A stretch of 48,191 nt of DNA, counting the filler, from Streblomastix strix (taxonomy: Eukaryota): the NCBI GenBank assembly GCA_008636045.1. It is 2 parts of 2 records of this genome, joined end to end, with 100 filler letters (N's around TTAATTAATTAA, not from the genome) between each part and the next. Parts side by side here need not be neighbours in the genome. Positions count along the whole stretch, not along the records: positions 1 to 24,086 come from SNRW01000249.1; 1 more part is not named here. One strand, written 5' to 3'. How positions within the stretch are numbered: position 1 is the stretch's first letter; the number at the start of each line of letters is the position of its first letter. The notes below the pieces were generated by a model. The model saw only the letters and a list, made by a program, of their open reading frames with translations, was not told where the DNA came from and ran no database searches. A program made the position numbers and the translations under genes. This document shows positions 200 through 42,807 of the stretch, one piece after another.

Positions 200-409
200 A
201 TGGGTTTTTGGTCTGGATTGAAAAATTTCGGTAGCAAAATACTAGGAGGTATAACTAAAGCTGCAGGTTGGGTCGCTCCAACATTGAATAAGGTATTAGG
301 TACATTAGCAGGTCCCGTTAGCATGATTCATCCTGCGATAGGATCAGCTATGGGAATAGGGTAACGAATAGCTGGTGGTGTAGATCGATACATTAATGGG
401 CCTAGATGA
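200..409 (+). CDS. 69-aa Gly-rich amphipathic protein, putative membrane-penetration (adenovirus pVI-like) virion protein
   Basis: MGFWSGLKNFGSKILGGITKAAGWVAPTLNKVLGTLAGPVSMIHPAIGSAMGIGQRIAGGVDRYINGPR*. One TAA read as Gln, ends in TGA. The N-terminus resembles the pVI helix LWSGIKNFGST. Confidence 0.8.
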
Positions 410-2248: not shown

Positions 2249-3340
2249 ATGGCTTAAATAGGTTTGTAAATAATCAACAATGATAGGGAAAACGATTATG
2301 TTGAATGGATTGCTCAAGCCCCTACTGGATATAGATAATTTTAAATCAATAGCATGAATAATGTACCTCTAAATCTATGCTTCTTCATTAACGATGATTA
2401 TATTGAACTAAGACATGGAATCAAAGTGTTAAATTTGAAGTAATAAATAAAGACTGCAAATGGAACATATAAACTAGGATCTATTAATTAAATCCCTCCG
2501 ATTAGAATTAAAATGAATACTATAATAAATAACATATATATATATTAGATTCGAATAAATAGTCATATCTTAATAAGCCCAGCGTTAACGCATTGAAATA
2601 AACCGATTTTAACGAGTTCATTGACCCACAGGAATAGTATTTCGAACTAGTCAACTGTATTAACTCCAATTCTATTTGTTTCAATAACGGTGTAAATGAA
2701 CATACTCAAAAATAGTAGAATAACACATACAGCTTGAATATAAATAATGGTACAGATATATGTAGTTCTACATTAAACTATATCAATTTACGCTTGGATT
2801 CTATCTTATATCATTATTGGATAGTTGATCCTGATTTAGCAATAGCTTATCGATTTATTCGTCTAATGAGATTATATGAGCCAACAGGCAATAACTTTAT
2901 AACATCTATCGAACCTCTATAGGGAACCGATTAACCTTATAACCTTAATATAACGTATAATTATGGGAAGTAGATAACATTAACGAATGGTAATTTAATT
3001 GAAACTGATACTATCCCAATTAATGTATAATCATTAACGATGTAATAAATTAGCAATAGCATTAATACATTTCTCATTAGAATGATATGTTCATTACCTG
3101 CATTAAACGTATAATAATGGAAGGATATATACACTGAATGTTAACTATTAAATTAGTATGGGTAATATATTCCAATAGTAGCTAATAAATATAACAGCAA
3201 ATCACATTAAAATTGGTACGTTAATAGTATAGTATTATCTAACAACTTATATATACAATTAACCGGTGGACTTGATTTGTATGATGGTAATAACTAAAAT
3301 AATGCTAATCAATTGGCTAATATTACACTCAAGATAATTA
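2249..3340 (+). pseudogene. Putative minor capsid (penton) protein, copy 1; frameshifted and 3'-truncated
   Basis: MAQIGLQIINNDRENDYVEW... aligns by eye with 12135-13602 up to QLTGGLDLYDG..NANQL. Frameshift in the (AT)n run at about 2533-2545; lacks the last ~100 aa. Confidence 0.6.
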
Positions 3341-4051
3341 ATTATCAAGGATAAGAAAAAATTCTATAATTCATTATTCATATAATATTCATTTATAGTT
3401 ATAATATTAATATACATATATACTTATGACATAATACATATATAATAATCAGGTCCCGTATATGATTAATTATTGAATAATCTAATTTTCAATTTTATTA
3501 GGTTGATTGTTTATTGAAACAAATTATAAGGGACAAGAAAAAACATTTTTTATAAAAATTGTTCCAATACAGTAAATTGTTATATATGTAAATGTTGATG
3601 TAGTGATAAACCAATAAAATTGGTTTGATTTTCAAATTGAATATTTTAACAATATTTTTTATATCCAAATAATACTATTAAAATACTAAGAAAAAGTACA
3701 TTTTTTACAAAATATAAATAACTTCTTAATTTGTACAATAATAATTTTTAGGTTTATATCAACATCTTCTACAATGAATATTATATTAATTCAGAAGAAT
3801 CAAATTCTTCTATTAGCATAACGTATTTAATTAAAATTTTTTATTTGAAATTTTTTATTGAAATTTTTTTGATAAGAAAATTATTACATTTTTATAAAAA
3901 TAATAATTTGAAAATTAAAGATGGCTGTTATTATAAAAAATGCGCATAACCTACATAAATAATATTATTTAACTTATTCGAAGATTAGGTCTCTATTCTT
4001 ACAATAATTAAAAAAAATAAGCATTAAATAGAGGAATTAAAGTCCTAATAA

Positions 4052-4345: not shown

Positions 4346-7300
4346 GTACATATAATTATCAGCAGTTAATCCATGGATAAATGATAGGCAACTTTAACTA
4401 TTTTAAGCACTATCATCTTAATTTATATTCCTGTTAACGCATTCTTTGTCGATATCAACTTACTCATACATTAAGTCTTTGACAGTTTAACTTCTTACAG
4501 TCAATCAGCTTATTAACCTAGTCTCATGTTAGTTCCTTGTGTTATTTTTCCACTAACGATATTATCAATCACATCCTATTTGTTTATATTATTCTATCGT
4601 AGATTAACTCCTTTAAGTTTGATTACATCTGTCAGTTAATTACGTTTGAATGTATGTATATAGTAATTCTTTGAGGCTAATGCAAACATCTCATTAACTT
4701 CATTTTCGATCGATAAACCTAGTAATTTCTTCTCATCTTTCACTTTGTTCAACCTTTCGGTTCATTTATCACCATCCACAGTTGGAAAAAAGTATTTTGC
4801 GTTAGTGTCATAGAACTACTGGTCCTTGATATCATATTTAAAACCATGGTGTAAGTTATCTTCGTATTATTATTAGTTTGTGCTATTGAGTATAACTTAC
4901 TTACCACTAATTGCCCAATAATCTGAATCAGTATCTCCTTCCACAAAATGAAGCTTCGTCATATCCATGCATTTATACATGAAATTATATATGAAATTAA
5001 GATATCAATACTTTGCATTGTCTAGTGTAAAATAAGTTACTTATAAACATATATTACATTTGCAATTCTTTGGATTAAATTGAACTACATAAAGGTTATC
5101 AGCTAATTTACGATCATTCATCCATGATTACTTGGTATGTGCTTCTATTGTCTTTTCTTTAGTAAGTAGTTTGATCTTGTTATATTTCTCAGTATTCATA
5201 CCATCAGATCCATAAGAAGCGTTTAAAATCATCTTACAAAATTTATCCAAACCACTATTTTTATTTTAATAGCTTCAATGCGTTTCTTCATGAACTAATT
5301 AACGAAAGCATTAAATTTGGTATGCTTATCGAAAGCAACTTACTGTTTAATATCATCGACAATAAAATGACAATCATCAACTAGGAACCATAAGTAATAA
5401 GAGCTAAAGATCATATATTAATTATGAGTAGATAATAATTGATATAATTTCCTTTCTTATTTATCAGTTTTAACTCCTGCTTATTACATCTATTCATACA
5501 TATATTACCCGATAACTGATTTGTTTGATTAATATGATAAATTACGAAATATAGGTGGAAAATTAAGGAAATCATTGATATAGTTAGAATCAATGTGTCC
5601 CTTCAGTTATACAATGAATAGCTATTCTTTGTCATTGAATCTGTTATCAGAGTGAATTATTTTTCTTGGTTAGATTAGATCATTAACTACACCTGTTACT
5701 TATCCACACACATACATAATACCGTTAGTATACTTGTTAAAGGGGTATAATGAGTTAAAATCAACGCTACAAAAATAAGTTATAGTATGATTAGTACTGA
5801 TTACTGTTACAGTTTTGTTCTCATCATTATAGTAATATCGTTTAATGGTGTCAACATTAGCACGATTATAACGATGCATTACATTTGATAGTCCACCGGT
5901 AATGTTACGTCGAATGAGATAATATATTTCATCATTTACAATTGTTTAGGGAAGATGATTAATATTACAATATCTACGGAGTTGAATAAATAGCTTAGTT
6001 ACCTTCTCATCCTTATCTGATTTATAACGATTGCAATATAAACATCAGGGTTAACAGTTTGATTTAGTATGAAGGAGTCTATTATAAATTCTATCTAGTG
6101 TAGGTTTATTATCCATCGTAAATTTATCACCACAAATAACACAAATAGATGATTCGAATAGATTCTTATAGTATTCATAGTCATTAATCGTCACATTATT
6201 GTTTGTCTTACGATGCTTTTGTTCCCTCTATATATTATATCCTAAAACTTTTGAGTTCCAACAGCTTTGAGATAAAATGAAAGGTTTAGACTTAGATTGT
6301 TATTAAGGATAGTTAGTGCTAAGATCGAAATCCTTGTAAACTATAGCATATTTAATAGCATTTGCATTAGCAGCAATGCTCATGAAACTAAGCATATCGA
6401 CATTGTTTTAATAGAACAAATTAATTAGATTGTTTAACGGTTATATCATTATCTGTGTGTCTAATTCATTATAGTGTTACAGATAGTCCCATCTTGTAGC
6501 GTAATTTTTAGCATCATTGTGATATAATAAGTAATCCTCATCAGTCATTATCTTATTCTTCGACATTGAATCAAAAGCATTAATTGGGAAGGGTTATGAT
6601 TTGATTCGTCCTTAATTATAGTTATCATATGTGATACCTTTATATGGAAATAGCCCTTTTGATTCGTTATCTTTATTACCGAAATCCTTAGCGAAACTAG
6701 TTAAATCTGTAGGCTAAGTATAATTCATTGCATCGATAAAAATGATCTAATATTTTATCTATTTATGTTCAACTACTATCTGTTTATTATATTCATTACT
6801 GCAAATGAAGCTTTATATCATCCACTTATCATTATGTAAGTATTTAGAGAATAAGGCTTAATCAAACCTACTAGAGTTGAATCCTATAATTGACACGTTT
6901 TATTTGTAAGGTATTGCTTCATTATTATACTTATTGTCTATTGAAACTTGTTTAGCCTCTTCGAAAACCTACTCAATCCATTATGTTATAAAATCATCTC
7001 CATTGCGTAAGTCAAAATAGATAGTCTTTAAAACTGCAAACCAAATGGAGTTATTATCTTTTTATATTAGTTGTCATTATTATATTAGTCTCTCCATTTA
7101 AGTTTGATAGTTGATACAACGGATAGGAGTTCTAATACTGAAATCCATTAGCTATTACGAATAATCTGATCATTTTTGTTGATTGGTTAACCAAAATATG
7201 TATTAACTTTACGCTCTACTGTTTCAAAATCACATGTAATGTAATATTATGTAGGTTTAAATTATTACTTAGTATTGTTCGCTAATAGATAAGCATAAGT

Positions 7301-8858
7301 TTCATTTTGTTAGATATGAGGGACATATGGGAAAGGTTACTCATCGAGTTTAACTTTCTTAATTATTTTACCGTCATTAATCTTAAATTTACTAATATGC
7401 TATTAATAGTCTCTTTAGAAGTTATTATCCTTAGGGTCAAATGATTATTAATAACAGTGTGGACAATATTTTTATCTCGTTAATCCATCTATATTAGTTA
7501 CATAGAATACATGATAGATGTCTTGATTGTCATTTGAGTCTGAAACCAATAGAATGTTAAATGAAGGAATATTTTCATCCATTGGTTCATCTTATTATAT
7601 AATTGTAGATTCTAGACTCGTAGAGTATATTTCAGTGTTGTCTTCTATTGAAATAGTCTTAAGTTTATTGTATTATTTTCACTCACCTAAGTAATAGAAT
7701 TTACTATCATTGTCATAATAGAATATATTAATATTAATCTTCTTCTTAATAATGAATTTATTCAACTCGTTAACTACATCAAATCCTTTATAGTCATTAA
7801 TGAAAGTATCGTATTACTTCTTCGCTAGATTATAGAATTCTCTCATTTATTTTTTAGCTTCACATCTAATTTGATCAGGAGATACTTTGCCTTTTAATAT
7901 GAATCTAGCATATGCTAACCAAATGCAATTATTCAAATCACTAACTTAATAGAATTGTTATTACTTATGTGATTTATAACGCTTGTCAATTAGCTCTTTC
8001 ATACATAAACCAGCTAATGGAAATCTACTAACTCTCACCATCATTGAATATATGCCAATGTATCTATATTTAGTTTATTCAGTTATTTGAAAATATTACA
8101 TCTCAACTATACAGCTTTTAATGTATAATTTATACTTTGCTATTGTCTCTTAATTTGTTATCATTATAGGAGCATATTATTGTATGTTCTTATCTAACAA
8201 AGGTTAATGATCATAGATAAAGTTACCGTAAGCAAACTCCTCGCTAATTGTACCAAATAAAAATTGAATCTTAAATGCTCTTCAATTATTCTCTTCATAT
8301 ACTGTGTAAATTAACTCATTGATATAACTTAGTTATATGATTTCATTATCATAGTATGTTGATGATACATCGTCATGAACTTAGACTATTTCTTCAGTAT
8401 TATATTCCTATCTAGCTTTTACAATCGCTTCTCTACATTCCTATTATTCCTAAGGTTGAGTGAACAACAAACATTTAAAATAATCAGTTATAATCATCCT
8501 CTCTAACAGTTTAGTCTCTATGTAAATCTATCTTCGCCTATAATTCATCAACCTCATATTAAGTAAAGTGTTATAGTCTAACGATTTTTTATTAAGTCTC
8601 TTTAAAGTTAGTTGCTTTAATTATTTATTTCTAAAATTTGAGTAAGTCTTCCATTATTACTTGATCTTTCAATTGATCCATCTAATTTTCGACCACAAAC
8701 GTTATAACCTTAGTGTAATTAGTTCTACCTCCTCGTCTAGGGAATCTTAATTCGTTCAGTAATTAGGTCTCTCTAGTTTTGAATTATTTAACGGTGCCAC
8801 TTGTAGCTAAATTAAATACTATCAATATGGATTATAATTGTGCTTTGGTTAATGTCAT
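4337..8858 (-). pseudogene. polB: Protein-primed family B DNA polymerase (pPolB), ~1500 codons, with internal TGAs and frameshifts
   Basis: ExoI TCDFET (~7225), ExoII GFNSSRFD (~6870), ExoIII HYNELD (~6470), motif A VDFNSLYP (~5755), motif B KMILNASYG (~5225), motif C EGDTDS (~4930), then IKLKGVN. Confidence 0.93.
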
Positions 8859-9157
8859 TTATAACATAATTAAAAAAACGATAAAAAATAATTACCTTGA
8901 GATAAATAAACAATTAATGATATTAAGTTATTAATGATTATTTTTACATATAATTGATAAAAATCAATTTTGACCCATCGACCTTTTGGTCCAAATGAAA
9001 ATGAAAAAATAATGAAAATAGATTACTAAGAATGATGTTTTATCTTTGTTTACAATATGAATTTGCGTTTTTAAAAAAATTAAGCGTTATAACTTGTTAA
9101 AATATCTGTTTGCGTATATGAATGGATTATTAAAAAATAATTATATATATAAAATAA

Positions 9158-10317
9158 ATGTAAAAATAAATTATTTAATTTATTGAAGATAAAGCGTTCA
9201 AAGTTGATAAAATAAAATTAGTGGATTTCATAAAGAATTTGAATTTTGTTTTTAAAAAATAATTCAACATCAATAATTTAGAGGAATAGTTTGAAGATAA
9301 AACTATTTCTTATTGGTATAAGATTAGTCTTGAAAATTTTTAAAAGTATCATGCTGAACGTGTAATGCACAATGTAAAACCGTAAGTAAAAACGAAGATT
9401 TAATTAGAGCAATAAAGAATTAAGAATCAATTTAGGAGCAAAGTTAAGGATAAAACCGATATAGTGTAATACATTAAATTGAAACCATTAAAGAAATATT
9501 AACATCCATACTTTTCGCCTGAATTAGGGAGCTAGGAAATTGATAAAATATTTATAATGCATCCAACAATTAATAAAATAATTCAATAATATCTATTTTG
9601 CATTAATTTTAGCATTAAGTACTTAGTAATATTTCCAATTAAAGATTAATCAGCAACTGAGCTATTAAAATGTACTAAATAATTAAAATCTAACAAACTT
9701 GTAAATAATATTAGATCTGATGGTGAATCAGCGTTGGGAAGTAAATAAATTAAGGGTTATTTATTAAAGAATGGTATAAATTATTTCAATAATTCATCTC
9801 CTTTCGTTAATAAAAATAGAGCAGTTGATTCGGTAGTTAGAGCGATAAGGAATGCGTTTGAAAAAGAACCTTAGCAAGTGGCTAATAATAAATAATTATA
9901 ATAAGTTGTTGATGATTATAATAACAGAAAACACTCTGCTTTTAAATAAAATTCTCTCCTAAATAAGTAAGTGAGAATGAAGATTTAGAAGGAATATTCA
10001 TTAGATAAAAAATGAAGATATTAACTGATGTAAAGGAATAACAATGCAAGGATAACTTAATAGATTTAAAGAATGATAATATAATAACTATACATCTTGA
10101 TTTGAAAAAAACTGCTAATGGATTTGAGAAATAACGTAGATAATTGAATAAAATAGCAACTTTTATAAAATTTGAGCATGGAAATGTTGTTTGTGAACTA
10201 TTGAAACCATATAATGATAATAAGATTGTTGAAGTAATAATTTATTATATTCATAAGGTTACAAACAATACTGAAACATTAAAAGATAAATATAAGTAAA
10301 CTTTTAAATTAGTTTGA
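9158..10317 (+). pseudogene. Retroviral-type (rve) integrase of Polinton type; frameshift near 9950
   Basis: SQEID...YLFCINFSIKYL...NIRSDGES...NRAVDSVVRAIRN...YNNRKHSAF, matching the rve core layout. Confidence 0.85.
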
Positions 10318-12080: not shown

Positions 12081-12134
12081 GGTTTTATCATCTCTGATGC
12101 CGGCTAATTTTGGATTTATTTTTGTTTCAATGAA

Positions 12135-13602
12135 ATGACTAACATCGGTTTACAAATTATCAACTCAGATTCAGATAAGGATTATGTAACATGGCAAACA
12201 ACTATCCCTAGTGGAAGTTAAAGCTTTTAAGTTAATAGTATCAGTAATATTTCAACTAATTTAACATATTATTTGAATAATGATTATATAGAAATATAGC
12301 ACAATATAGTTTCAACTAATGATAGAAAAATATATTATTAAAATCAAATTGGTGAAAATTAATTCGAATATATATTATAGGAATAATTGCCACCAATTCG
12401 GATTAGTTTGAATGCAGCAGTTAATAACGCTTATACTAGTGATTAAACGTTATAAGGATATAAAATTTTAACCTGTATTACTTTACTAAACATTAACTAC
12501 ATTACATAACTTCGCTGATTCGGTTGAGAAATATTTTAGACTATAATCAACTTTGAACAGTTGCGCAATATGCTTTAATAATATAATTAATGAACATGTT
12601 TAAATATTATAGAATAATCAGTACAAATTAAATTAGAATTATGGGTAAGATTTAAAAAGTTCAGCAATAAATTACATTAACGTTACATTCGATGCATTTC
12701 TCAACAATTATTGGATATTTTATACAGCAGTTAATTTTGCATATCGAATGATTGGATTAATACGATTATATAACCCAACTTCAAATAATTACATAACAAC
12801 TATAGAACCAAAGAATTTTACAGGACATGAATTATCAGTACGATACTTATTTTGTAAATAAGTTGATGTAAATCCTATTGGAATATTTACAACAACTGAC
12901 GTATAACCTGTGAATGTATAACAATTAACAATGTCATAAATCATTAGAAACATAAACACATTTCCTATAAGACTAATCTGTTCATTTCTTGCACTTTGTA
13001 TTAAAGAATAAGAAAGCATTTACATAGCAGTTGGAAGAACTAATTACTAAGGATAATTTATCTCATAAGTTGTAACTGAATATTGTTAGTAAAATAACCT
13101 TTATTGGTTTTGTAATGTTATACTATTATCACCAAATCTATACGTACAATTAGTTGGTGGATAAGATCTTTATGATGGATAAAACGAAAATAGAGCCAAT
13201 TAATTAATTTATTTATCATCAGCTATTAAGTAAATTGTTCTCGAAGTATGGTTCTATTAAACAAAATATAATAATTAAAGTTTAGAAGTTGATCTTCCAA
13301 TATTCTGTCCATATATCGGGAATTTTCTAGAGTATCCATAAATGCTGATAATTTGTGTATCTAATTAATTATAAGGAATAACTCTATCATCAACTGAAGA
13401 TAATGGATTCTCAAATATATGTTTCAAATAGAATTTGGTTGATGCACCAGTACTATGGAGATGGAATATGATGAGTTAGTAATGCCTTGTAGGATAGAAC
13501 AAATCGTTAGTGTTTACATTATATGATAATTTTGGTAGAAAAGTACCTATATAATATATGGATATGTATAATAATTTACTTCTCGAGATACAATTTTAAT
13601 GA
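12135..13602 (+). pseudogene. Putative minor capsid (penton) protein, copy 2, ~490 codons, one frameshift near 12470
   Basis: MTNIGLQIINSDSDKDYVTW... is paralogous to 2249-3340. The C-terminus LVFTLYDNFGRKVPIQ...LLLEIQFQ* fits the '(I/L)x(L)xDxxGxx(I/V)...LxLxF' ending typical of Polinton/PLV pentons. Confidence 0.65.
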
Positions 13603-16589: not shown

Positions 16590-18600
16590 CCAGCGATTTT
16601 GGTAAGAAATTTCTGTTAGTGGCAGCAAAAAATTTTGATTGGCTGCATTTTTTTTTAAATTTCATTTTTTAGCTATTTTCCAATTAAAAACTTTTATTTT
16701 TAATTTTCAACTTTTTTTTTAAAAAAAAATATTTTTTTAAAATGGAAAAATTTTAAAATTTCGGATAATTTATTTTAACTATTTTATTTAATAAAATCAT
16801 CTTTAGTTCTAATAATTTCTTAACAAAATTTCAAAATTTGAAATTAAATTAAATTCTATTTAATTAAAACTGCCATTATTATTTTTAATTATTAAGTTTT
16901 ATTCATTTGAGTCAGTTTATATCGATTTATGAAATTGTTTTTTAATTAATAGATTAATACATTCAGAAATTTCAGGAGATAAATCAATAATATTATGGAA
17001 ATCAGCTCAGCAATTGCCAGGAGATTCTTTATGGCTTTCTTTTCCAACTTTAGTCTCTTGATAAGGAAACACATATGAATATGCAACTATCATTTCAATT
17101 TATATACTTTCTAATGTTCCTTACACTAGCATTCATCCTAATTAACCATGAAATTGAGAAACAAACCGCTCTTTCTTACGTTTATATAAATTAAAAATTA
17201 TTTTCCCATTAATCATTAAATTTTATATATTATTTTTGGTTTGAACTTTAAAAATTACACTTCACTTGGCTGATAATAGGAAAGAACGAAGTATTTGTAA
17301 CAGTTACATTCTTAGATTACATTGATAGTTACATATCATTACATGGAAAGCATTACTATCTAAAGAAATTGAGATAACTTAAGTGTAAGTAATATATATA
17401 AAGTGTTTAATCATATATCTCGTAATCTATGAATGATTTATTCCATTTGTTTCAATTGTAATCACCTTCATTTGACTTTTATTCTGAATTATACGTTGAT
17501 GAAGGTCGATTACACATTAAAAATGTTATCTACCTTGGAGATAACACATTGAAGTGCCTAACAAATGCATGCCAGATTGTGTCATTTCTGTTATCTATAA
17601 TAGCATTCCTTGGATTAATTATTTATTCAATCATTAATGTTTTATTCATATTCAAAAAAAAATTTAAGAATGTTGTATTAATCAGTAAATCAAATGAAAA
17701 AACATAAGACAATTCAATAAATATATGTTGAACTTAATATATTGAGTATGCATCATCTGAGTTCAATGCAATTCTGGTGTGATATTGTTATAATTATTAT
17801 ATCATTGATATTAGTGATTATAATATTCATTTATATTCCATTATATTCATTTATATTCAACTTCATAATTGCAATCCCATGGTTATTATTCACAAGTGCG
17901 AGATTATGCTGTGAGTTTGGATTTACAATTGAAGAAGCTACTCATTCATTTATTCCATAAATTCAATTCTTGATATCAAATGTTGTATTATACATAAGTC
18001 TTTGAATTATATTTTATTCACAATGAATTTTGTTGAAAGCAGAAGATGGCTACTAACAGTTGTTGGACAACCATTGATTGATATATATGGATTGAAAGTT
18101 AAGATGGAGAATAATAATATTAAATTTAAGTCTATTGGAAAAGATAAATGATTATTTAATCAAAATTATGTCTCTGGCTTCATCTATTGTTCTGAATCGT
18201 TTTACATTAAACTTTCTATGTATTCATCATACTCTTTTATCGATTCTTAAATATCTTCTTCTTCATCCGTTCCAACTTTACTGCTATCAGATTCTTCTTC
18301 AGAGGAAGATTAATCACTATCACTTCCATCAAATTCATTATTAAATCTTTCCAAAATTTGTGATTTTGGTTATCAAAATCTGTGTGGCTCGCCTAGCCAA
18401 GCTTCTGAAATTAGTTCAGCATCCTCATCTTTGATCTCCTCTTCTGAATTTAATCCGATTGCCAGAAACAAGTTGAGCATAGGCTACGAAAGACGGTTTC
18501 TAATGGAAGACTTAATCTGTTTCATTACTCTAAATTGTCTATCGGCTTGCGCATTGGAGAATTTTGTGTGATATATATTTTTGCTAACTTCTTTATGAAA
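16590..18600 (-). mobile_element. hAT-related DNA transposon remnant, copy 1
   Basis: Collinear similarity to 30038-32416. Minus strand ~18420-18560 encodes SNAQADRQFRVMKQIKSSIRNRL (hAT C-terminal dimerization motif) followed by an acidic tail. AGTGGCAGC subterminal motif. A second degenerate ORF lies at ~16960-18110. Confidence 0.7.
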
Positions 18601-22330: not shown

Positions 22331-23975
22331 TCATTTTGACTTTATTTCTTTTGTAGTTTCAGATTTTCGAAGTTAGGAATTGTCAATTCTCCTTCTCTTC
22401 CTCTTCGGGGCATCTTCTGGGTTAATATCAAACGTATTGCCGCTGCTCTTTTCTAATAGACCAATGCGATTGATCCATACTTTCGCTTGATCTGGACCAA
22501 TAATTTCGCCATGTTCCTCTTTCATGCTGTTTTCATCATCATCATCGTCATCAACAGAGATATCTGGAGGAGGTTAAATATGATGATGCAGATAAGCTTT
22601 GAAAGGGGGGTATCTGTTCTTAGGAACAATTTGTTTACTTATTGAACTTGAATTAGGATTAATCCAATTGCGCTCATTGAGGGTTGACTGTGGAGAAGCA
22701 TAAATTATTTGATTAATAGAAGTAAAAAATGAATAATTTTTTACGTTTATTATTTGGAGAAGATTTATATTTTATTGTTAGTTATTTCTTTAATAAACTT
22801 TCACACAATGTTCTGTTGTAGATTCTGATTTATGTGTGTTTAAATATTAAGACATCTTTTCAGAAAAGATGTTTATATCTGCTGATGATATCTATTTGCA
22901 GACATCCTATGACTGTGAGCCATAATTTCCAAAAAAAGAGTCAACAATGCTCTTTCCGTGTCCCTCAATCCAAAATGATATAAAGACCTATTTTGGATGT
23001 TTAATAAATTATTAATTGCAAAGAATGTGATACAATGTCATTGATGAATGGAAACAGGGACCTTTATCGAAAAAGAAGAAGAAACGATCTTTGTCTTAAA
23101 AAAATGGACGTTGTAGAAGAGTATTAAGGCAAGTGCATACTTATATTGCATCTTTGTTTTATATGTGAGAATTATGGGTATATGTTAATTCTTATAATTA
23201 ACCAGTTGATGAGAGATTATAACAAATAAACGTTAGTACTGAGACTTTTAAAGGATTGTAGAAATCAGTAGATGTTTATCTTTTCTGAAATTGGAAAGGT
23301 AGAGATTATTTAAAGTCTCCAACGATTATTATTTCGGAATTGGACAGATGTGATTATATGTTTTCGTAAAATGTCTTTTGATCTTTTGCAAATTATTTGT
23401 GGATTTTTACTATTCTTAAGTGAAATGTTTCTTGGTTGCTTCGTGGTTATTATTACTATTTTAATTCCAATTATTTTGCAATTTCACATAACACGCAATA
23501 ATCAGTACCTCTAGACTATTTTACGATAAGACCTTTAATAGAATTGCAGAAGAACGTGTACCCAATCTAGAATTCTGGATACGTTTAATTGTACAGACGA
23601 TGATATTCCTTTAAATTTTGGCTGTAAGTGTATTTATGATATTGATTTTCTTCAGTGAATACGTCTTCAAATTTAAGATTAATTTGCGCTGAACCAAAAA
23701 GACCGTCCCAAGGATCTACTCCACTTTCATGAAATTCTTTAAGTGTCTCTACAATGGAACTTTGCATAACTAATAAAATAATTAAATATAAAGAGTTTTT
23801 TCTTTCAAAAAATAGGAAATTAATTATACCTCGTTTCCCCATGAGAGAAGACTTCTCTGTTTATTCTCTCATGAATTTATAAATCATTAAATTTATTGTA
23901 TCACGTTTGAGCTCCCATTTCGTTTGTCTATTCTCTAATTCAATCTTTTCTTCTTCATTCCTTTTACTTTTTCGA
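22331..23975 (-). CDS. Sola2-like DDD transposase, intron-containing, 5' end lost at the assembly break
   Basis: TDYCVLCE...H, IIVGDFKQ, FFDKGPCF, FWIEGHGKSIVDSFFG. Main exon open with TAR=Gln. GT-AG introns at ~23778-23829 and ~22689-22744. TGA at 22331-22333. Confidence 0.75.
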
Positions 23976-24086
23976 GGAATAAAGGTCCCTGTTTCCATTC
24001 ATCAATGACATTGTATCACATTCTTTGCAATTAATAATTTATTAAACATCCAAAATAGGTCTTTATATCATTTTGGATTGAAGGAC

Positions 24087-24185
24087 NNNNNNNNNNNNNN
24101 NNNNNNNNNNNNNNNNNNNNNNNNNNNNNNTTAATTAATTAANNNNNNNNNNNNNNNNNNNNNNNNNNNNNNNNNNNNNNNNNNN
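24087..24185. other. Assembly gap with artificial TTAATTAATTAA spacer
   Basis: N-run with a central palindromic all-frame-stop linker. Confidence 0.95.
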
Positions 24186-24399
24186 NTAGGTAGATATTGC
24201 AGATTGCTGAGAATTCTTTTTCTAGAAAATCGTTAAAATTATTAACTTTTAATCCGATTAAATTTATTTATTTGAATTGTTGATTTGCCGTCTATAAAAA
24301 ATTTCATACTCTTGTTTTTATTGTTTATGTAAATATTTGTTTAGTTATATAACTTTTTAGAATAAATATTAATTATTCGGAGAACTAGAATGAATTTGA

Positions 24400-30037: not shown

Positions 30038-33004
30038 CCAAGGATTTTGTTAAGAAATTTCTGTTATGTAGAAAAAAAATTTTGAGTGGTACCATTATTT
30101 TTAAATTGTATTTTTTAGATATTTGCTAATGGAAAAATTATAAAATTTATGATAATTTATTTTAACTATCATATTTAATAAAATCATCTTTAGAAATAAT
30201 ATTTTTTAACAAAATTTTATAATTTGAAATTAAATTAAGTTTCATTTAATTAAAACTGCAATTGTTTTTTGATTATTAAATTTTATTCATTTCAATCAGT
30301 ACATATCGATTTATAAATTGTTTTTTTTAATTAATTTATTAAACGTTCAGAAATTTCTGGGGATATCTCATTGAAATGTCTAACAAATGCATGTCAGATT
30401 GTATCATTCTTTTTATCTATATTAATATACCTTGTATTAATTGTATATTAAATCATCAATGTATTATTCATATTCAATCATAATCATAAGAATGTAGGAT
30501 TAATCAGCAAATCAAATGAAAAAGTATAAGACAATTAAATAAATATTAGTTGTACTTAATATAATGAGTATGCTTCATCTGTATTCAATGCAATTCTGGT
30601 GCTATATTGTTGAAGTTATTATATCATTGATATTAGTGATTATAATATTCATTTATGTTCTATAATATTCATTTATATCCAACTTTTTAATTGCAATTCC
30701 ATGATTAGTATTCACAAATGCGAGATTACGCAGTGAGATTGGATATACAAATGAAGAAGCTACTCATTCGTTTGTTCCATAAATTCTATTCTTGATATCA
30801 AGTGTTGCGTTAAGCATAAGTCTTTGTATTATATTTTATTTACTTATGAATTTTGTTGATAGTAGAAGATGGCTATTAATAGATGATGGACAACCACTGA
30901 TTGATGTTTAAGGATTGAAACCTAAAACTGAGAATAATAATGATACTTAATAATAATAATAAAATGATAATAATTAATAATAATAATCAAATTAAAATAC
31001 AACATCTAAAGATATTCAAACAAAATAAACAGCAACAATTCAATTCCCTAAAATCAAAGATCCAGATTCAGTAGAACCTTGGGTTAGATTCTTATAACAC
31101 AAAGAATTGAGAGATAAAAGATACTTAGATTATGCAGACTATGTTTGTACAAGAGGATTAAAAAGACAGAAGAGAAATGCTTAACTTCAATTCAAATATG
31201 GAAACTTCATAATTTAATATACAAAGAATAGGATCAATGTTCAATCAATACATAAATTTAAAAGACAATAATATCCAAATTTTTCATTTAGATTTGTGCT
31301 TAACGATATAACAAAGGATAGTAACTCAAAATTATGTGGGTCTGTTAAAAGGAATATGAATGAAATGAATACTTCTATGTTAAATCGGAAGATGGCATAA
31401 GCAGAGAAGTACCATGAAAGTGCTAAATAAGAAATGAAAGATTTCTTTGAAAATATGACAAGTTCACATACTAATTTTGATATAAGATATCGATATTTGA
31501 TGCAGATTGTTGAATTTGAGCAGAAATCGAGATTCTACTATGAAGAGTTGATGGTGCTATAACCAATGAATGCAACAGTGCTTCCTAATTATGCACATTT
31601 TCTTAAGTATATATCACGATGATAATAAAGCTGATATTATCTTATAACATACAGAGGTGCTTGAAGAAGAGAATACTCAGAGTCAGAACTACTCAAAGGG
31701 TGATAATATCGCACATGCAACAGATACACTTATTTTGAATGCTGATATTACATCATCAAATAAAAACAGTTATGAACCAAAAAGTAAATGAAAGACTTAA
31801 CGCAGATAAACTTGATCAACCAATTGCTATATAGAACAACAGCCAGAAATCGAGTAATAGGAAGAAGAAAAGAAAGAATAAAGAAGGTCATAATGAATAA
31901 GTAGGTAGTTCAATAGCAGATCTAACTTGTAGATAAGTTGAAGATAATTCATCAATGAGGATCTTATTAATGAGATAAGTAAAAGTAACTCTTTTTATAT
32001 ACATTGTTGAACATATTTTTGGTGCTGTATAATATTAAATTTATATTAATTGAAAAAGATAAATGATTAAATTTGATATTATATTTAAAAAATTATGAAA
32101 TTTTATAATAATTAATATATAAAATAAATGCAAAACTTATATATTTCATATTTTTTTAAATGTTTATTTAGTCAAAATTATCACTCTGGCTTCATCTACT
32201 ACTCTGAATCTTTTTACATTAAACTTTCTATATATTCATCATACTTTTATATAGATTCTGACATATCCTCCTCATCATCCATTCCAACATCACTGCTATC
32301 AGATTCATCTTCAAAGGAAGATTAATCACTATCACTTCCATCAAATTCATTATTGTTTCCTTCAAAGAATTGTGATTTTGGTTACAAAAATCTGTGCGGC
32401 TCGCCTAGCCAAGCTTATGAAAGTGAATTTGGAACGTTTGAAATAAGAGTAAAGTTGCAATGATGTTTCGAATCAATTTCTTACTTAATTCTAAATTAAT
32501 ACAGAATAAAAAACAGAAAATTTAAAGAATCAAAGAAAAATATATCTCGACTTATTATTTACAGCAAATTTTGCAAAAATAAAATAAAAATTATAATAAT
32601 AATAAAAATATTATTAATAATAATAATAATATAAGTAATAATAATAATAATAAATTATACTTCTGTTTGCTTTTAATCTTTTTTTACATTTTACCTAATA
32701 TAAAAATAATTATATTATAAAAATTTAGAAAAAAATTAAATATGTAAAATATTAATTTAAAATTTAGAATTGAATATATCAATTAATTTTTTAAACATCT
32801 CTAAGATATATTTTTTTCTAAGCAACAGACATTAATTCATTGATCATTGTAAAAACTTGTAGACAATACAAGTGTTAAATTTTTCCTTTTAAATTTTTGA
32901 AAATTGTACAAACTGAGATCATGAAAAATAATTATTTATTTTTTGAAAATTTAGAGTGGCAGCAAAAACGATCCTAAAATGGCTGCTGCCACTCAAAATA
33001 GTCC
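30038..33004 (-). mobile_element. hAT-related DNA transposon, copy 2, internally deleted, with an embedded host gene fragment
   Basis: 30038-30940 and 32050-32416 match 16590-18410. The right end has inverted GAGTGGCAGCA/TGCTGCCACTC motifs and ends ...AAAATAGTCC|TTAA. Confidence 0.7.
30960..32045 (+). pseudogene. Internal fragment of a TmcB/TmcC-like (TPR-containing membrane) protein gene
   Basis: Long open frame PKIKDPDSVEPWVRFLQ...AEKYHESAKQEMKDFF...SRFYYEELMVLQPMNATVLPNYAHFL, then a frameshift, a K-rich linker and a hydrophobic helix. Confidence 0.55.
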
Positions 33005-34406: not shown

Positions 34407-35020
34407 TCACCACATTGACATCAGAGGGATCAACATCACGGCAGCAATCACACTCCATAAAGCCCTTATTGATCCTGAAGTATCTTTTTCAGTTTCTGGA
34501 TCATTGCAAATACCTCCTTCAACAGTCCTTGGATCTGCCTCATATGCTTCTATGTCTTCTATTGATGGACATGAACAAACAGATGGCAATGTAGTTTCAG
34601 TAACATCAGCGCATTTATCAGGATCCTCTGGAATTGGTTCTTCTTCATCCTTATAATTCTCCAGATTGAATAATACTGACCCAGTATATTATCCAAACTT
34701 ATAGTCTATCTCATCCATATCCCAATGACAATCTCCATATGAATTAGGAACTGCCTTAATCCATTCATTTCCTGCCCAACCAATAATTAGTTCTCTGTCT
34801 TCATTTAATCTGACAACACCAGTTCTGAGGAGTAACTTCTTGAGTGTAACTGCATCAATGTCGTAGAAATAACTTTCTTTAAAACCTTTCATATATGATT
34901 TCAATACTATTTATGTGTCTACGCAAATTTATTTTCAGTTAGGCATATCTAACTCAAAATAACATACGAAAGCATTTCCAGTAGGATTTTTTTCCCACCC
35001 CATAACTGAATTTATTTTGA
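34407..35020 (-). pseudogene. 3' part of a DPR-repeat surface protein paralog
   Basis: LKKLLLRTGVV...LIIGWAGNEWI, one CSCP...DPR...GGIC repeat and the hydrophobic tail SGSIRALWSVIAAVMLIPLMSMW*. One upstream TGA; no 5' part found. Confidence 0.7.
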
Positions 35021-35227
35021 TATAACAAAGGAAATAACTAAGTTCTAGTTCATTGAGTGTATTTAAAACAAAGTTAAATTCTAGTCAATACAAAAATAAT
35101 AGCTACTTCATACAAAATAAAATGGGAAATATAAAAAAACTATATGGCATCAAACAGATCGTCATAACTAACAATTATGATAAATACACATTGTATCTTG
35201 TTAAATTATCAAGTCAATGTTTGTGCT

Positions 35228-37655
35228 TCACCACATTGACATCAGAGGGATCAACATAACAGCAGAAATCACACTCCATAAAGCTCTTATTGATCCCGAA
35301 GCATCTTTTTCAGTTTCTGGATCATCTGGGAGTGGCTCATCATCGCAAATACCGCCTTTGACAGTCCTTGGATCTGCATCATATTCTTCTTTATCATCTT
35401 TAGATGGGCATGCGCAGTCTGTTTTGCTAGTTATCTCCGTAATCACATCACATACAAACTTGTTGCATGCTCCACCTTTCGCGAATCTTGGATCATATGT
35501 AAGCGCTTTTACTGATGGCACTGGACATGGGCACTCTTCCTCAGTTGTCTGTAGAGTAGCTTCTGTCTCACAATCAATTGGGTTAGATTTAGGATCTTTA
35601 TAACAAAGCCCATACTCATTTTATGATCTTGGATCTGCATTGAATGATGTGGAATCAGCAGCTGGAGGGCACTCACATTGGTATCTGCGTGTTGCTGAAG
35701 TAATCTGACTAAAGCAATCAATTGGCCGAAGTGTAAATAAGGATCTGGCGAAATGACCAGAAAAATTAGTTTTATCTTTCTTCAGTACTCCATTTTCGCG
35801 ATAGAAGTAAAGCAAATTTTCACCTTCAAATCCATAATACACTCTTGGTCCTGTAACACCTGGAGAATCTGCTAACACTGGACCAAAGAACTACAATCTC
35901 ACTTTAAGTTCATCTGGATCTAATGTTCTAAATTTAATAAAGATTCCTTACCCACGAGAGGTTGAATATACTGTTTCTTGTGGACTATTTGGGCACATGA
36001 CAGGGCACGCCCTTAAATCTTCTGTTCCATAACATTCCTCGGGTACCACACCTCTTATAAATGTAATATATTCCCAACTGGGGACTTAACCAGATTCTGC
36101 AAATATATTACCGTATTGAGATTTTGTTGGATGGCAGTTCCTGATGTACCAGTATGATGGTTTTATATTGTTTGTACTATTGTAGGCATATAGTACGGAT
36201 GCTTAGAAGTCGTAGAACATCTAATCTACGTACTACATTGGTCCCATTTATTCAGTGCCATATACATCGCTGTTAACCCAATTAAGATTTGAAAAATCAT
36301 CCAAAGGCTTAATCATGTCCAGATTACCAAATTCATCAGCTTTAAATCTTTCTGTGCCTGGAATGAGTTCAACTTCTAACTCTTCGCCACCATATTTGAG
36401 AGAATCACCTTCAATATATTGCTGTTCGAATATCTCAGTAAAGTAAATTCCACTACCGCAAATACCTCTATATTATGCCCTTGGATCTGATTCATAAGCT
36501 TCTTTATCTTCTTTATCAGGACATGGACAGTCTTCTTCAGGTGTATCATATGCGAGGTCATGTTCGCAGTCAACTGGTACATGAGGTGGTGCAATATAGC
36601 AAATACCTCCTTCTGAAAACCTTGGATCTGAATCATATGCTTCAGTATCTTCTGGATCTGGACATGGACATAGATCCGCTGATGTGTTACGCTATATATC
36701 ATCTGTGCAGGTGATGTACTAGTGAGCTACAATATATTCGTAAATTGGTGCAGTCTAATTCATTGTATTAACTTTTGATTTCAACACTCCATTCTCACGT
36801 TATATGTAAAAGAAGTCATATCCTTCCCATCCGTAGTATAAACGATCATCGTGGATATCAAGTACAGGCCCGAAGTTTGCAATTCTTAACTTTAATGCAT
36901 CTCTGCCCATCGTACCTCCATTTGTTAGCCAAAAATCTTTCCCATATTTGTTTTCTGCAAATGTACCTACTTCGCTTGTGGTGCATTCAGTCCGGCATGT
37001 TCGATTTTCTGATGCTTCTGTCCCATAGCATGCTTCATCGATTACACCTGCTAGGAATGTCATCTTAGTCCAATCCTTGACAGTGCCATCTTCATTGAAT
37101 AACTCAATTGAAACGGTTTCTATTCTTGGCTGGCACTCGTAGAGTGAGAGGTAAGACGGAACAATGGTCTATTTCTTGTATAAGTACAGCACAATCGCCT
37201 GAAAGTCATAAAACCCTTTGTTAACATACTGTTTTGCTCCTACCGTTCCTGTTTCAAAGACTGCACTTTCTTTCCATGGAAGAATAGTAAGGTCTGGTAA
37301 AAGGTTTAGATTACCATTAGTATCAGGCTTAAATCTTAATTTTTCATCGGTCAACTCTCTAAGAGTTACTATGTACCATGATCCAGGGAGTTTGAGCTTC
37401 CCATTTTCAAAAGTATACAGTGGAAATGATACACTATCGTTGCTTTACGGCGGAACTATAGTGCTCAGGACCGCAAGTCCAAAGGCAAGTAAAACAATTA
37501 AGAATGACCTGAAAAAATATGAATAATAGTATAAAATTGATTAGTTCAAAAGTTATTGTATATTTTATATTAATTGTTCTTGTTTTGTCCATTCGCGGAA
37601 TATCACAAATTTACACTATCATAATTTAAACATATATATCATTAAGCGCATACAT
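35228..37655 (-). CDS. Secreted/GPI-type surface protein (~760 aa): signal peptide, two degenerate papain-like domains, five Cys-rich DPR repeats, hydrophobic C-terminus
   Basis: 37507-35228 is 760 codons (including the terminal TGA) uninterrupted with TAR=Gln. Begins SFLIVLLAFGLAVLS after a TTTTCAG acceptor at 37509. First exon is uncertain. Confidence 0.88.
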
Positions 37656-37779
37656 GTTGATTTTCTAAGCAATTTACTCAAGTTTGGCTAAGGAAAAATT
37701 TCTCGATCTGTCCCTTTAACTGGAAATATTTTTTATATTTATCTGTATAAGACATTTCTTATTCATTTCCTATAAAAAA

Positions 37780-38780
37780 ATTGTTGTATTTCTGTTTCTT
37801 CAATCATTATGACATCAATATGACCTCTTTGGAACCTCGCCACATTGACTGCTGAGGAATAAACACCACAGCAACAATCACACTTCATATAGCTTTTTAT
37901 TGATACTAAAACTGTTTGAATCGGTTCATAAATACCACCTTAAATAGTTTTTTTAGATTTGTTTCTTTTTCCATTAAATCATTTTTAGATAACACTGACA
38001 ATCTGTTTAGAGTGTTATCTCTAAATATGAAAGCCTACATTTAACCGTTTTTTTATCTGAATTGTATGTTTCATCTGTTGGTTCAAGATATATACAAACT
38101 GATGGAGAAGTTGCTTCTTTAATATCATCGCATTCAAATGGTTATTAGTAACAAAGTCCAATTTGATCCGTTCTTGGATCAGAATTAAATGATGTTTTAT
38201 CTGCAACTGGAGAACATTCGCAATCTTTTCTAGATGTTAACGATGTAATCTTAATTTCACAATCAATAATCGAATCAACATGTTACTGTTAAAATAAGTA
38301 GTTTCCTTATTTTCCATTGTATAATCTTGGTTTAATAACATTTTTCATATAAATATGTACAAGTCCAAAATTTGCTATTCTTTCTTTAAGTTCTGTTTGA
38401 CGCATTGCTTGTAGCAACGAACACATTTGCTCCTCATCTTCGTTTCTATGGTGAACACCATCTTAGATATTAGTAATATGGTTTGCAGTCTTTTTTATTA
38501 TAATTAATTGTAATGTCTAAACTGCAATGTTGATTTATATTATATTATTATAAACTAAATTTTTGTTTATCTAATTTATATGCGAACTTATGAATTATTA
38601 TGAAATTAAATAATCTATTCATTTAATTTGATGGTTCTTTAGATTTTAAACATAGAGTAATCGTAGCTATCCACTTATCTGAAATACAACCTTTTTATTC
38701 TGAGACTGTAACCTATGGCAATGGATCCAGTCAACGAAACCCAAAATATTCACAAGGTGTTAAACATAACATTAAACTAT
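37780..38780 (-). pseudogene. Degenerate paralog of the DPR-repeat surface protein
   Basis: ELKERIANFGLV and IDCEIKITSLTSRKDCECSPVADKTSFNSDPRTDQIGLCY, closely matching the 35228-37655 product; disrupted. Confidence 0.7.
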
Positions 38781-39281: not shown

Positions 39282-40250
39282 TCATTAAAAGCTTACCAGT
39301 GTATCCATCACTGTATCATTTAAGTTCATATCATAGTGAACAGCCATAGTGCTAGGTCCATCTTTATGTCTAGATACCCTGTTGATCTCTTGGATTGTAG
39401 CCCCTTGATCAATACTTTTAATGATTAATGATTTACGGACTGAAGTAACTGAATTCCCTTTCATTATTCTAGATGCTTGCATGATAATATGTGCAGCTTT
39501 GGAAAAATATTCATAGGATGAAACGTTCTTGTTCTTAAGTCGCCATCAGAGTGATTTATCTCGATCTTCTTTTCTACTTAAACCAATCCAACTACTAAGC
39601 CATGTTGTAGCGCACACCTTAGAGTTAGACAGAGGTCTGAATGTCACAGATAAATAGTAATTATCACCTTTCAATATTGATGTACTTAAATGCCATACAT
39701 TATCTTCCATCATGACTACTGAGGCTCTATGAATTTCAACTAAACGAAGAATAGAAAATGCCATAATTGAGGATATTATGCATCCTAAGTGTTTTTATTC
39801 ATTTATTCTTTGTTTAATATCAGCTCATTTTTGTATATGCTTCAGAAGGATATCTAACCAATAAATTGGTTCTTCCTTTCTCTTCTTCATTGTAGCTGCA
39901 AGGGGTTTTTCATAATCAGCTTTAGTGCAAACCCATTTATTCTCTCTTCATGGAAGCATTGGATCCTGAATAACATCTCCAATGCTGTTCAACATGCATT
40001 CTAATTGGCATTTATAGCATATACTGAGATTTGTAAGACATTAAAGTTCGATAAAATTGTTTCTGTATCTTTTATAATTTTCAAAACTTCCCATGACATT
40101 CCAGATTTAGTCCAGAACTCTTCAAACTCTCCTATTCTTTACCTATGTCTGCTCCAAATGCTATGCCATCCATCAATAACTTATATTGTTGCACCATCAG
40201 TGAATTACCTTTTCGAAAGTATCCATTTGAACGGTTCCTCTCCTCTGTCA
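39282..40250 (-). pseudogene. Tyrosine recombinase of the DIRS element
   Basis: ILRLVEIHRA (R), TSVRKS, SRHK, VHYD (Y); internal TGAs; stop at TGA 39282-39284. Confidence 0.85.
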
Positions 40251-42160
40251 CCTCTAATCGAACTGCGAGTAACTCGCCTGGTGGAAGATGCTTTTTAGCT
40301 TTCCTCATCCTAACCCCTGGTTTCAACACGTCTGCGCTTTTTCCCAGGTTAACATAATTGGTTGATAGCTCCATCAGACTTGGCCACCATGATTGGGATG
40401 GCCAGCATGGCACTACAATTAATGCTGTGACATTCTCGTCCCTGACTTTGTTGAACATTGTTAGGATCATTGGAAGTGGAGAGTGAAGGTACGGTAGATC
40501 TCTCTTCCACGTTAGCGACATGCAATCTTATCCCATTGCCTAGCTGTCAAGAATCATGTTCGCAAATTGTTTCAATTTTCGGTTCCTCCTGTTTGCAAAC
40601 ATATCTGTTAATGGTCGAATCTTTAATGATCGCAGAGCTTACTCGAAGACTTCTTGGTGTAGTGAATAACTCACTAAGGTAGCTAATTTGGATATTAGGT
40701 TCGGGATCCTGTTTGTTACTCTTTGAATGTGGAATGTGTGAAGCTGGAGGTTGAGAACTTCTGCTGTTTCTAGAGTTCGATCTACAAATTTCGTGAGTGC
40801 TACGGCAGCTGAACCCCGATTGAAATTATATGCAGCTAAGCTATTATCTGTCTCGATCTTAAGTGATTTTATCTATCTTTCTTTTAGGTAACTCACTGAT
40901 TGGCAAAGCGCGCAAAGAATAGCTGCCGCATCTCTCTGATTGATGCTAATAAGATGCCAATTCAGGCATCAATTGCCCCAAAACCAAACCTCATGAGCCG
41001 AATCTTGCAGTTTCAGCGTTGCTTCCCAATCTGTAAGACTCGCATCTGTTGATTATGTAGCTTAAGCTAAGGCTATTATAGCTTAAATCAGTTTATTTCT
41101 TGCTACCATCGACTTCCACCAGAATATCTCCTTCAAAATCTACATATTCGGAGATGCCAATGCATTCCAACCTTTTTGCAGAGCTGTCCATGATTCGATC
41201 TTATTTAACTTCTTCAGTTTGATTCAGCTTCTCTTAAATAATAGTCGCAGGAAATTAAGAGACCCGATGAAACTAGCCAGGAATCTCACTTTCACCATTT
41301 GATAATACATTACAATCCTTCTCCATCTACTCAGCATTTGGTTTATCTTCTTTTGTCTACTAAGAGTCATTGATAATTGATCTTAATTGGAATCTATCTG
41401 CTATTCTAGAAACTTCATTAACATTGTTGGTTGAAATACCGACTTGTTCATTGATATTTTGAACCCAAAGTTTGTAAGAATAATAATGATTAGCTATTTC
41501 TTGCAGATCAGTTCTTCTTGATTCTGGTGTGAAATGATGATATCGTCGCAATATGCAATGATTCGGACATGAATAACTTCTCTGATGAATTTTATCACTG
41601 GAAGAAGAGTCTTATGAAAGATGAGTGGAGCATGCTTGACCCCGAAACACATTGCTTTATTTTGATAGTATTTATGATTGAAAGTGAAACCGAGGAATGG
41701 TCTGAAATCTTAATCCACTTGGATATGATGAAAGGCGGACTCTAGATCGATTTTACCATGAAGTCCTTGGGTTGCAGTAGTTGTCAAAGACTTTGAATAT
41801 CTTCCATTTTGAAATGTGTTGAATGGAGATGTTTATTCAATAGAGAGCAATCTGTTATCATTCTCCATTTTCCCTGATCATTCTTCGATATTGCATAGCA
41901 AGAACTGATCCATTTCAGTTAATTTAGAGACACTTCCTTGACTATTTCTTCCTGCAGCTCCTTCGAAATTAGTAGATCTAGTGCTTCTTAACTCTCTTTA
42001 GATCGACTCTGAATAGGAATTGTCATATTTGAATGTAGGCTAGATGATGATTGCTTGTTTATCCAGTATGCTTTTATACCCCTAGTTATCAGTGTTTCTG
42101 CTTTGATAAGTTTCCATATATTCATAAATGGATCAGCCTTCCGCCTATTACCCATTTAGT
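40130..42160 (-). pseudogene. Reverse transcriptase-RNase H-methyltransferase-like ORF of the DIRS element
   Basis: RT: WRMITDC, DLESAFHHI, MCFGVKHAP, AYCDDI. RNase H: TDAS, ETDN, FHIP. MT-like: DMFANRRN...YLHSP...LIVVPCWPSQSWW. Frameshifted. Confidence 0.9.
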
Positions 42161-42601
42161 TTGAGTCTGGTGATCGTCTAGTAGGTATTTGATGTGATTA
42201 GAAGAGATTTAGATTGATGGATATTCTCTACTGAGTTAGGAATCTATTGTAGTTTGATAGCCAGTTGTTTGAGGAGATTATACTTGTAGTTGATGAGAGT
42301 CTTGAAGAAGATTGCCAGATGATTACTGACCTGTTTGATAGAGAAAATCTGTTGATAATTACTGGATAAATTCGGGTTTATTTTCGATGTTAGGAAATGT
42401 AATACCTATTGGGGAAGTTGACACCACTCTAGCTGGATCTCTAAGCCGATTTTGATGATAGATATTTTATTGTTCTGTGTTGATTGAATTTGATTATGGA
42501 GTGTACATTGATTCTTGAATATAATCTTCTAATTTACATTTATTTTTCGGATTATTCATTATTATTTTATTATGTGAATCCATCTTACTCTTTTTCTTGT
42601 A

Positions 42602-42807
42602 TTGCAGGGTCCAAGGGACCGTCTCTCCAACGCACTTCACCAACTGCTTATTGCTTTGCAAGGTCCAAGGATTTCTCATCCCGACATACTGGCTCATTTT
42701 CTCCACTTTAGTCAGGGTCCAAAGAGATTCTATCCCGACGCACTGACTTAATTCTACTTTCATTGGCTTTGTTTGCAGGGTCAAAGGATTGGACATCCCG
42801 ACGTACT
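42602..42807. repeat. Four imperfect 35-bp repeats (periods 54, 54, 63 bp) encoding a peptide repeat
   Basis: Units like TTGCAGGGTCCAAGG...ATCCCGACG(C/T)ACT start at 42602, 42656, 42710 and 42773. Minus strand reads (Q/K)(Y/C)VG....(W/L)TL. Confidence 0.8.

Follow-up and report, generated by a model that had tools for sequence, protein, structure and literature searches.

Adenoviruses rupture host membranes during entry with the help of protein VI (pVI) (PMC8310329, PMC2841620, PMC4113798), and this process is the basis of the analogy drawn in this work. The lytic part of pVI is its amphipathic helix (PMC8310329, PMC2841620). The lytic residue L40 is located at the aromatic N-terminal start of this helix, through which pVI also binds hexon (PMC8310329). 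In the virophage mavirus, the capsid protein is cut at a GG site and the first released fragment, MCPC1, holds a predicted amphipathic helix proposed to act in endosome rupture; the same paper also proposes a scaffold role for the tail, and the lytic role is a proposal only (PMC6048507). Current proposals for membrane crossing by Polinton-like viruses and virophages include lipases, SLATT pores, and this mavirus tail helix (for the tail, PMC6048507).

Small genes of the pVI-like or membrane-active kind have already been proposed in Polinton-like viruses. For MELD viruses, a figure legend labels one gene VI and describes it as similar to adenovirus core protein six, and the small membrane-active genes Cupiennin, PLA2X, and GasderminX occur in related viruses (PMC8502044); LO6 of adomavirus was proposed earlier as such a gene (10.1101/341131). 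The Macc class (membrane-active capsid core proteins) is a polyphyletic, prediction-based label (10.1101/2024.03.25.586562). As in the Macc proteins of adintoviruses and MELD viruses, some of which are annotated as pVI-similar, the gene described here encodes a small predicted membrane-active protein in a virion gene module, a comparison made by description. Streblomastix was not found in the examined part of the adintovirus supplement. Our partial literature search revealed no description of this peptide family or of a motif shared by pVI, virophages, and the peptide.

A Short Peptide Gene Next to a Capsid Gene in Streblomastix strix

Streblomastix strix is an oxymonad whose endogenous viruses use a table-6-type genetic code (PMC10120064). 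The window analyzed here (the whole stretch of 48,191 nt) consists of two contigs joined at a run of N's (positions 24087-24186). At positions 200-409 (+), we found a stand-alone gene for an amphipathic peptide of 69 amino acids, which is an intact ORF under translation table 6 and contains a single TAA codon (codon 55, positions 362-364) read as Gln. Under the standard code, this ORF ends after 54 amino acids and is missing from the list of standard-code ORFs of at least 60 amino acids. The initial annotation, which described an intact 69-residue ORF hidden from standard-code ORF calling, was therefore right on this point as well as on the start of the ORF. Since the contig carrying the gene is 24,086 nt long, the gene is located only 200 nt from a contig end.

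The exact peptide sequence has already been deposited in NCBI, UniRef, and nr, and the gene is thus not unannotated; in its 15-member cluster, the 14 named members are hypothetical proteins of S. strix. Of 43 candidates from a single-sequence search, 41 clusters had E ≤ 10; every one of these reached E ≤ 5e-9, and 38 carry the name Streblomastix strix. In addition, the GC content of the gene (42%; GC3 25%) differs markedly from that of its flanks (10% and 18%). The matching clusters and this contrast in composition indicate that the ORF is a gene and not a chance reading frame.

The neighboring gene begins at position 139 on the other strand, 60 nt from the peptide start, and only its first 46 codons (positions 2-139, -) are present before it runs off the contig end. 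Their translation shares 87% identity with residues 1-46 of P0211, which belongs to a set of 65 long S. strix homologs; UniRef names eight of the 65 major capsid protein. In the Atlas, P0211 groups with double-jelly-roll capsids by features (0.95-0.96), and its predicted structure matches capsid clusters with TM scores of 0.45-0.58 over 359-470 residues. Based on these features and the predicted structure, we identified the neighbor as a major capsid protein gene. Our own AlphaFold2 model of this protein was poor (pLDDT 41) and three fold searches matched nothing; a Pfam scan of 29 members detected no capsid family, and capsid searches of viral contigs confirmed none of 289 and none of 593 candidates. 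Six accessions of this capsid family were absent from the examined part of a supplement on S. strix endogenous viruses, and the S. strix capsid that it does show appears by eye to belong to a different family (PMC10120064). Judged by its capsid gene, the element that hosts the peptide is an endogenous Polinton-like virus.

The two divergent start codons are separated by an AT-rich spacer of 60 nt (positions 140-199, 10% GC), which is likely the shared promoter region of both genes. Six adjacent locus-tag pairs of peptide and capsid genes were found on contigs of equal size. Among 58 extended S. strix gene models (at least 95 amino acids), 19 hold a stretch antisense to the capsid gene, parsed as lying before the peptide in 17 of them, and none holds a capsid-sense stretch. 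The head-to-head layout is kept in many S. strix copies.

The C-termini of the S. strix capsid proteins (P0194-P0258) show a GG-x5-G end without a tail in 29 of 35 intact ends; this end might be either a relic or an active cut site. At the end of the second contig (46303-48191, -) lies another capsid gene of this family, in frameshifted form, together with a D5-like helicase fragment (43655-44254, PF19263, E 3e-15).

Other Genes in the Window

Downstream of the peptide gene is an ORF without assigned function (442-1023, +), which also occurs 3' of the peptide in other copies and is fused to it in three S. strix gene models (P0139, P0146, and P0154). Sixteen other gene models run from the peptide into a repeat-rich protein that by eye is possibly fibre-like, with a weak tail-needle match in one of the two models scanned. 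The ORF at 442-1023 is followed in the window by a KilA-N domain ORF (1402-1830, +; PF04383, E 1e-13), its end apparently affected by a frameshift; a homologous model covers the continuation at 1817-1993. The same contig carries a fragmented family-B DNA polymerase-like gene (5229-7678, -), recognized by eye from motif-like stretches and without significant match in Pfam, PHROGs, or PDB, and a retroviral-type integrase-like ORF (9122-10015, +; Pfam rve_3, E 0.065, below the curated cut-off). The matches of both are below cut-offs, their membership in the same element is unproven, and the element is cut by the contig end.

Several additional features were observed. Two related-looking ORF regions (2249-3429 and 12081-13602, +), possibly minor capsid genes, had no match in Pfam or PHROGs. 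A 555-amino acid ORF without clear family (22331-23998, -) adjoins a 108-nt inverted repeat (22960-23067 and 23979-24086), which stops at the contig end and is possibly an assembly artefact. Dispersed duplicated segments of 96-300 nt, 75-88% identical, are present at 16741-18410 and 30128-32422. Host-like genes arranged in tandem at positions 34407-38618 (-) carry Cys-rich repeats, end in a hydrophobic C-terminus, and are surface-protein-like (the one scanned had no Pfam match), and a degraded retroelement with a reverse transcriptase domain (PF00078, E 1e-19, 41224-41877) occupies a region of higher GC content at 39989-43824 (-).

Distribution of the Peptide Family

A profile of 25 family members was searched against 1.84 billion protein representatives (E ≤ 0.001), which gave 91 matches. 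Most of these are S. strix-type gene models as judged by sequence; the others are seven short proteins from metagenomes and a small number of unrelated repeat proteins. With a wider profile (88 matches among 2,435 candidates), a second branch, mostly of 69-83 amino acids, was recovered from metagenomes; 29 of its members, which use the standard code, were aligned. The family thus comprises dozens of copies in S. strix and a second, standard-code branch in metagenomes, and the conservation of the ORF among related elements that the initial annotation looked for is indeed observed. Among the S. strix-type copies whose start is intact, 35 of 47 contain the pattern [LI]K[ND]FG[SK]K, as do 28 of 29 members of the second branch; exact WSG[LI]KNFGS is present in 29 of these 47 copies and in none of the 29 second-branch members. 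Many of the S. strix copies are decayed; the window copy is intact while several of its neighbor genes are frameshifted.

A metagenome search for the peptide yielded five loci, one of which (L005) was dropped as a chance match within an unrelated ORF. L001 is an independent 23-kb standard-code element (16 of 23 kb examined) with two tandem peptide genes, and L002 likewise has two. The L001 element also encodes a P-loop ATPase, a fibre-like gene of 1,400 amino acids, and a capsid protein that is homologous to the S. strix capsid family (hhalign 99.8%) at 26% identity; its peptide genes do not adjoin the capsid gene but are located 8 kb from it. The second tandem paralog (L001:6060-6281 and L002:450-704) keeps only the first helix, followed by a Lys/Pro-rich stretch, and, to judge from the S. 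strix gene models P0042 and P0105, one subfamily may have this tandem arrangement as well. When viral contigs were searched for the peptide using three alignments, no candidate stretch could be confirmed (0 of 121, 0 of 247, and 0 of 197); prokaryote genomes were likewise negative (0 of 57). Among 11 loci with a stand-alone MG[FL]xxx[LI]K[ND]FG start, none was a short family member, and several were longer phage-type proteins that begin similarly.

Predicted Helix and Conserved Residues

AlphaFold2 modelled the peptide as a helix spanning residues 2-66 (pLDDT 66). Residues 2-37 (positions 203-310, +) are predicted to form an amphipathic helix, with a hydrophobic moment of 0.37 that was attained by only three of 10,000 shuffles; for residues 2-19 the moment is 0.41, attained by 100 of 10,000. 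The amphipathicity expected in the initial annotation is therefore borne out, and so is its statement that the helix is already N-terminal without cleavage, since it begins at residue 2. The moment of this copy (0.41) is lower than that of the virophage tails discussed below (0.55), which in turn is lower than that of the second branch (0.68). No transmembrane-type window was detected in the peptide, the mean hydrophobicity of the sampled 18-mers being at most 0.49.

Gly2 is kept in 40 of 47 S. strix-type copies and in all 29 second-branch members, and residue 3 is Phe in 46 of the 47. When a PROSITE-type N-myristoylation pattern was applied to the family, none of the 47 S. strix-type and none of the 29 second-branch members fit it, and the suggested myristoylation of Gly2 is not supported. 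ILGG and IAGG had also been put forward as maturation-protease sites. Using the protease consensus of the mavirus capsid paper (PMC6048507), we found that, of the 47 S. strix-type copies, 23 have [MIL]xGG at residues 14-17 and 26 have it close to the C-terminus; the first site is absent from all 29 second-branch members, and conserved maturation sites are hence not supported. Partial Pfam scans of ORFs in the window and in L001 (16 of the 23 kb of this contig) showed no maturation protease.

Comparison with Adenovirus Protein VI

The initial annotation was based on a match of WSG(L/I)KNFGS to pVI, and this match is genuine: pVI chains in PDB read WSGIKNFGS or WSGLKNFGS at residues 41-49, identical at eight or nine of nine positions. 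In pVI, this segment is located within the lytic amphipathic helix, seven residues past a GG site. Both proteins are encoded by separate small structural genes; however, pVI has 233-279 amino acids, with a cleaved N-terminal propeptide, further domains, and a C-terminal protease cofactor, whereas the peptide has 69.

When the first 22 residues were searched against PDB, six of the seven matches at E ≤ 10 were pre-protein VI (best E 0.16, residues 40-52), a value that is not significant; the whole peptide had no pVI match at E ≤ 10. None of 25 family members matched the Pfam family MCPVI (PF02993) at E ≤ 10, compared with E 3e-66 for a true pVI. With the 25-member profile, six of 12 PDB matches were pVI (E 0.57-4.2), and with the wider alignment pVI ranked last of 24 (E 9), after designed coiled coils, tape-measure proteins, and cecropin. 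A 30-residue profile of 32 pVI sequences, a set chosen by motif and thus favoring a match, scored the S. strix copies at a median of 21.5 bits and the second branch at 5.4 bits, and one phage decoy reached 24.1 bits. The pVI match is thus equalled by a phage decoy. After removal of the first 18 columns, pVI and the family matched at 0.3%.

At the sequence level, the likeness to pVI is real but short (about 12 residues, ending after about 12-19) and confined to one branch of the family. We consider common descent of the peptide with pVI rather doubtful.

Comparison with Virophage Capsid Tails

We back-translated the motif and scanned 2.9 million viral contigs, which yielded 44 loci: 36 adenovirus pVI loci (one confirmed by Pfam, the rest by shared flanking sequence), three C-terminal tails of Sputnik-type virophage capsid proteins, and five phage near-matches with Thr for Ser, among which the scanned one of a group of three is a tape-measure protein. 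The motif common to pVI and the virophage tails corresponds to residues 3-14 of the peptide (positions 206-241, +), and in the virophage proteins it comes after the GG where the mature Sputnik chain ends.

To avoid circularity, 29 virophage capsid loci were fetched by capsid-core patterns; five were cut by contig ends, leaving 24 complete tails. In 22 of them the alignment begins at profile position 2, and 19 follow immediately upon a GG. Dropping the three motif-selected loci and one near-duplicate left 20 tails. Because the core-pattern query was seeded by motif-bearing proteins, this sample represents one virophage clade; it covers Sputnik-type tails other than those of Sputnik and mavirus themselves. 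The values given here are pairwise. Common to such tails (L050-L076) are two GG sites, an amphipathic start, and an end rich in Arg; a His-Pro kink is frequent, and several tails contain Cys-Gly-rich inserts.

On the S. strix profile, the 20 tails scored a median of 19 bits versus -0.4 for reversed sequences. Conversely, a profile of these tails found the peptide ORF at 29.7 bits in the six-frame translated window, where the next best score was 8.0. The same profile gave 29.0 bits for the S. strix branch, 21.2 for the second branch, 16.4 for pVI, and 2.7-18.1 for seven motif-selected decoys. In a pairwise alignment, the match between family and tails reached 98.4% across 47 columns, compared with 3.8% for the reversed control. 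When the first 18 columns were removed, the pooled profile still matched at 72.6% versus 7.2% reversed, but neither branch alone kept a signal (0.9% and 15%). With the motif removed, HMM scores dropped to about 1 bit on the S. strix profile; on the profile of the second branch, they were about 4 bits, and its reversed controls reached 7.6-9.0. Most of the tail signal lies within the first 15-20 residues. No virophage capsid or pVI was recognized among the 91 matches of the 1.84-billion-protein search, whose cut-off of about 36 bits is above the tail match of about 30 bits.

Judged by these profiles, the virophage capsid tail is a closer match to the peptide than pVI. The two share the same motif in the same register, beginning at the first residue after GG, over 47 columns that include a His-Pro kink, and the match holds for both branches. 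On the other hand, the virophage tail is fused to the capsid protein, freed by a protease, and ends in a basic stretch, whereas the peptide is a separate gene on the opposite strand and lacks a basic end. The capsid cores of the S. strix elements and the virophages do not align. Similar motifs are found in phage tape-measure and other phage proteins (L085:1202-2830, L009, and L028) and in a fungal repeat protein (P0117), with up to 18.1 bits on the tail profile; these similar helix starts suggest that independent origins of the motif are possible. The likeness may reflect convergence of amphipathic helices, and we regard the chances of common descent with the virophage tails as evenly balanced. 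As for the link to the adenovirus entry machinery drawn in the initial annotation, a motif of about 12 residues remains, and the closest relative found is the virophage tail.

Possible Function of the Peptide

Three findings point to membrane penetration: the gene is linked to that of the capsid, the peptide shows an amphipathic pattern, and it matches the tail just behind the virophage maturation cut. By analogy, we lean toward the view that the peptide is a virion-packaged membrane-penetration peptide of an endogenous Polinton-like virus, which would help entry. It would be coexpressed with the capsid gene from the shared 60-nt spacer, bind the inner face of capsid trimers, and be packaged in the capsid. 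Uncoating would free the peptide, and its Gly-rich chain, Phe/Trp-rich at the N-terminal helix, might insert this helix shallowly and rupture the host vesicle membrane, as established for pVI. The peptide start codon sits where virophages have their GG cut site, so the N-terminus would be free without protease action. The S. strix capsid ends a few residues past GG without a tail, and the free peptide would take over the part that the tail plays in virophages. The proposal of an endosome-penetration protein thus keeps membrane penetration as its best reading by analogy, given a conserved, amphipathic, cationic, and capsid-linked peptide, and loses pVI as the closest relative.

Tight linkage to the capsid gene would also suit a capsid scaffold or internal cement peptide, whose helix binds the hydrophobic inner cavity of the trimers and drives assembly without lysis. 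The assembly scaffold proposed for the mavirus tail (PMC6048507) and the binding of pVI to hexon via the same helix (PMC8310329) are consistent with this, and scaffold and lytic roles are not exclusive. However, the peptide is cationic and Gly-rich with a single acidic residue, its conserved part is the aromatic N-terminal helix start that carries the lytic L40 in pVI, and among named Atlas clusters it lies closest to cecropin (0.78) and pVI (0.75), with neither value reaching lead level. A role in assembly alone therefore appears unlikely to us.

Membrane activity might instead serve exit, with an unpackaged late peptide that permeabilizes host membranes for release of progeny. The late structural-module location and the cecropin-like composition would fit such a peptide equally well, but both best matches are components of the virion and acquire their N-terminus through maturation cleavage, and the lack of a transmembrane-type window among the sampled 18-mers also argues against it; we consider it improbable. 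Least probable of all is a host-domesticated antimicrobial peptide directed against the bacterial symbionts of the protist, or a DNA-binding core peptide: the cecropin cluster, the intact state of the window copy among frameshifted neighbors, and the net charge of +6 might suggest either, but the sequence shows no apparent signal or pro-region, copies of the gene are found together with the capsid gene, many of them in a decayed state, standard-code viral elements contain relatives, and the basic residues are few and spaced along one helix face.

Evolutionary Implications

Taking the peptide as a membrane-penetration factor, a single ancestral penetration helix of the Polinton-virophage-adenovirus lineage may have been kept in three architectures: a cleaved virophage capsid tail, a pVI helix behind a propeptide, and a protease-free gene accompanied by a capsid with a GG stub. 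We offer this scenario tentatively and think that it is more probably wrong than right. If it were true, the free peptide would be a minimal and directly testable form of the entry machine.

The peptide family provides a short, synthesizable candidate for the membrane-crossing factor of Polinton-like viruses. If the shared motif is homologous, it would trace the origin of pVI; if it is convergent, it would mark a preferred sequence solution for the starts of membrane-inserting helices. Conservation of the peptide beside the capsid gene argues that the endogenous elements of S. strix made infectious particles.
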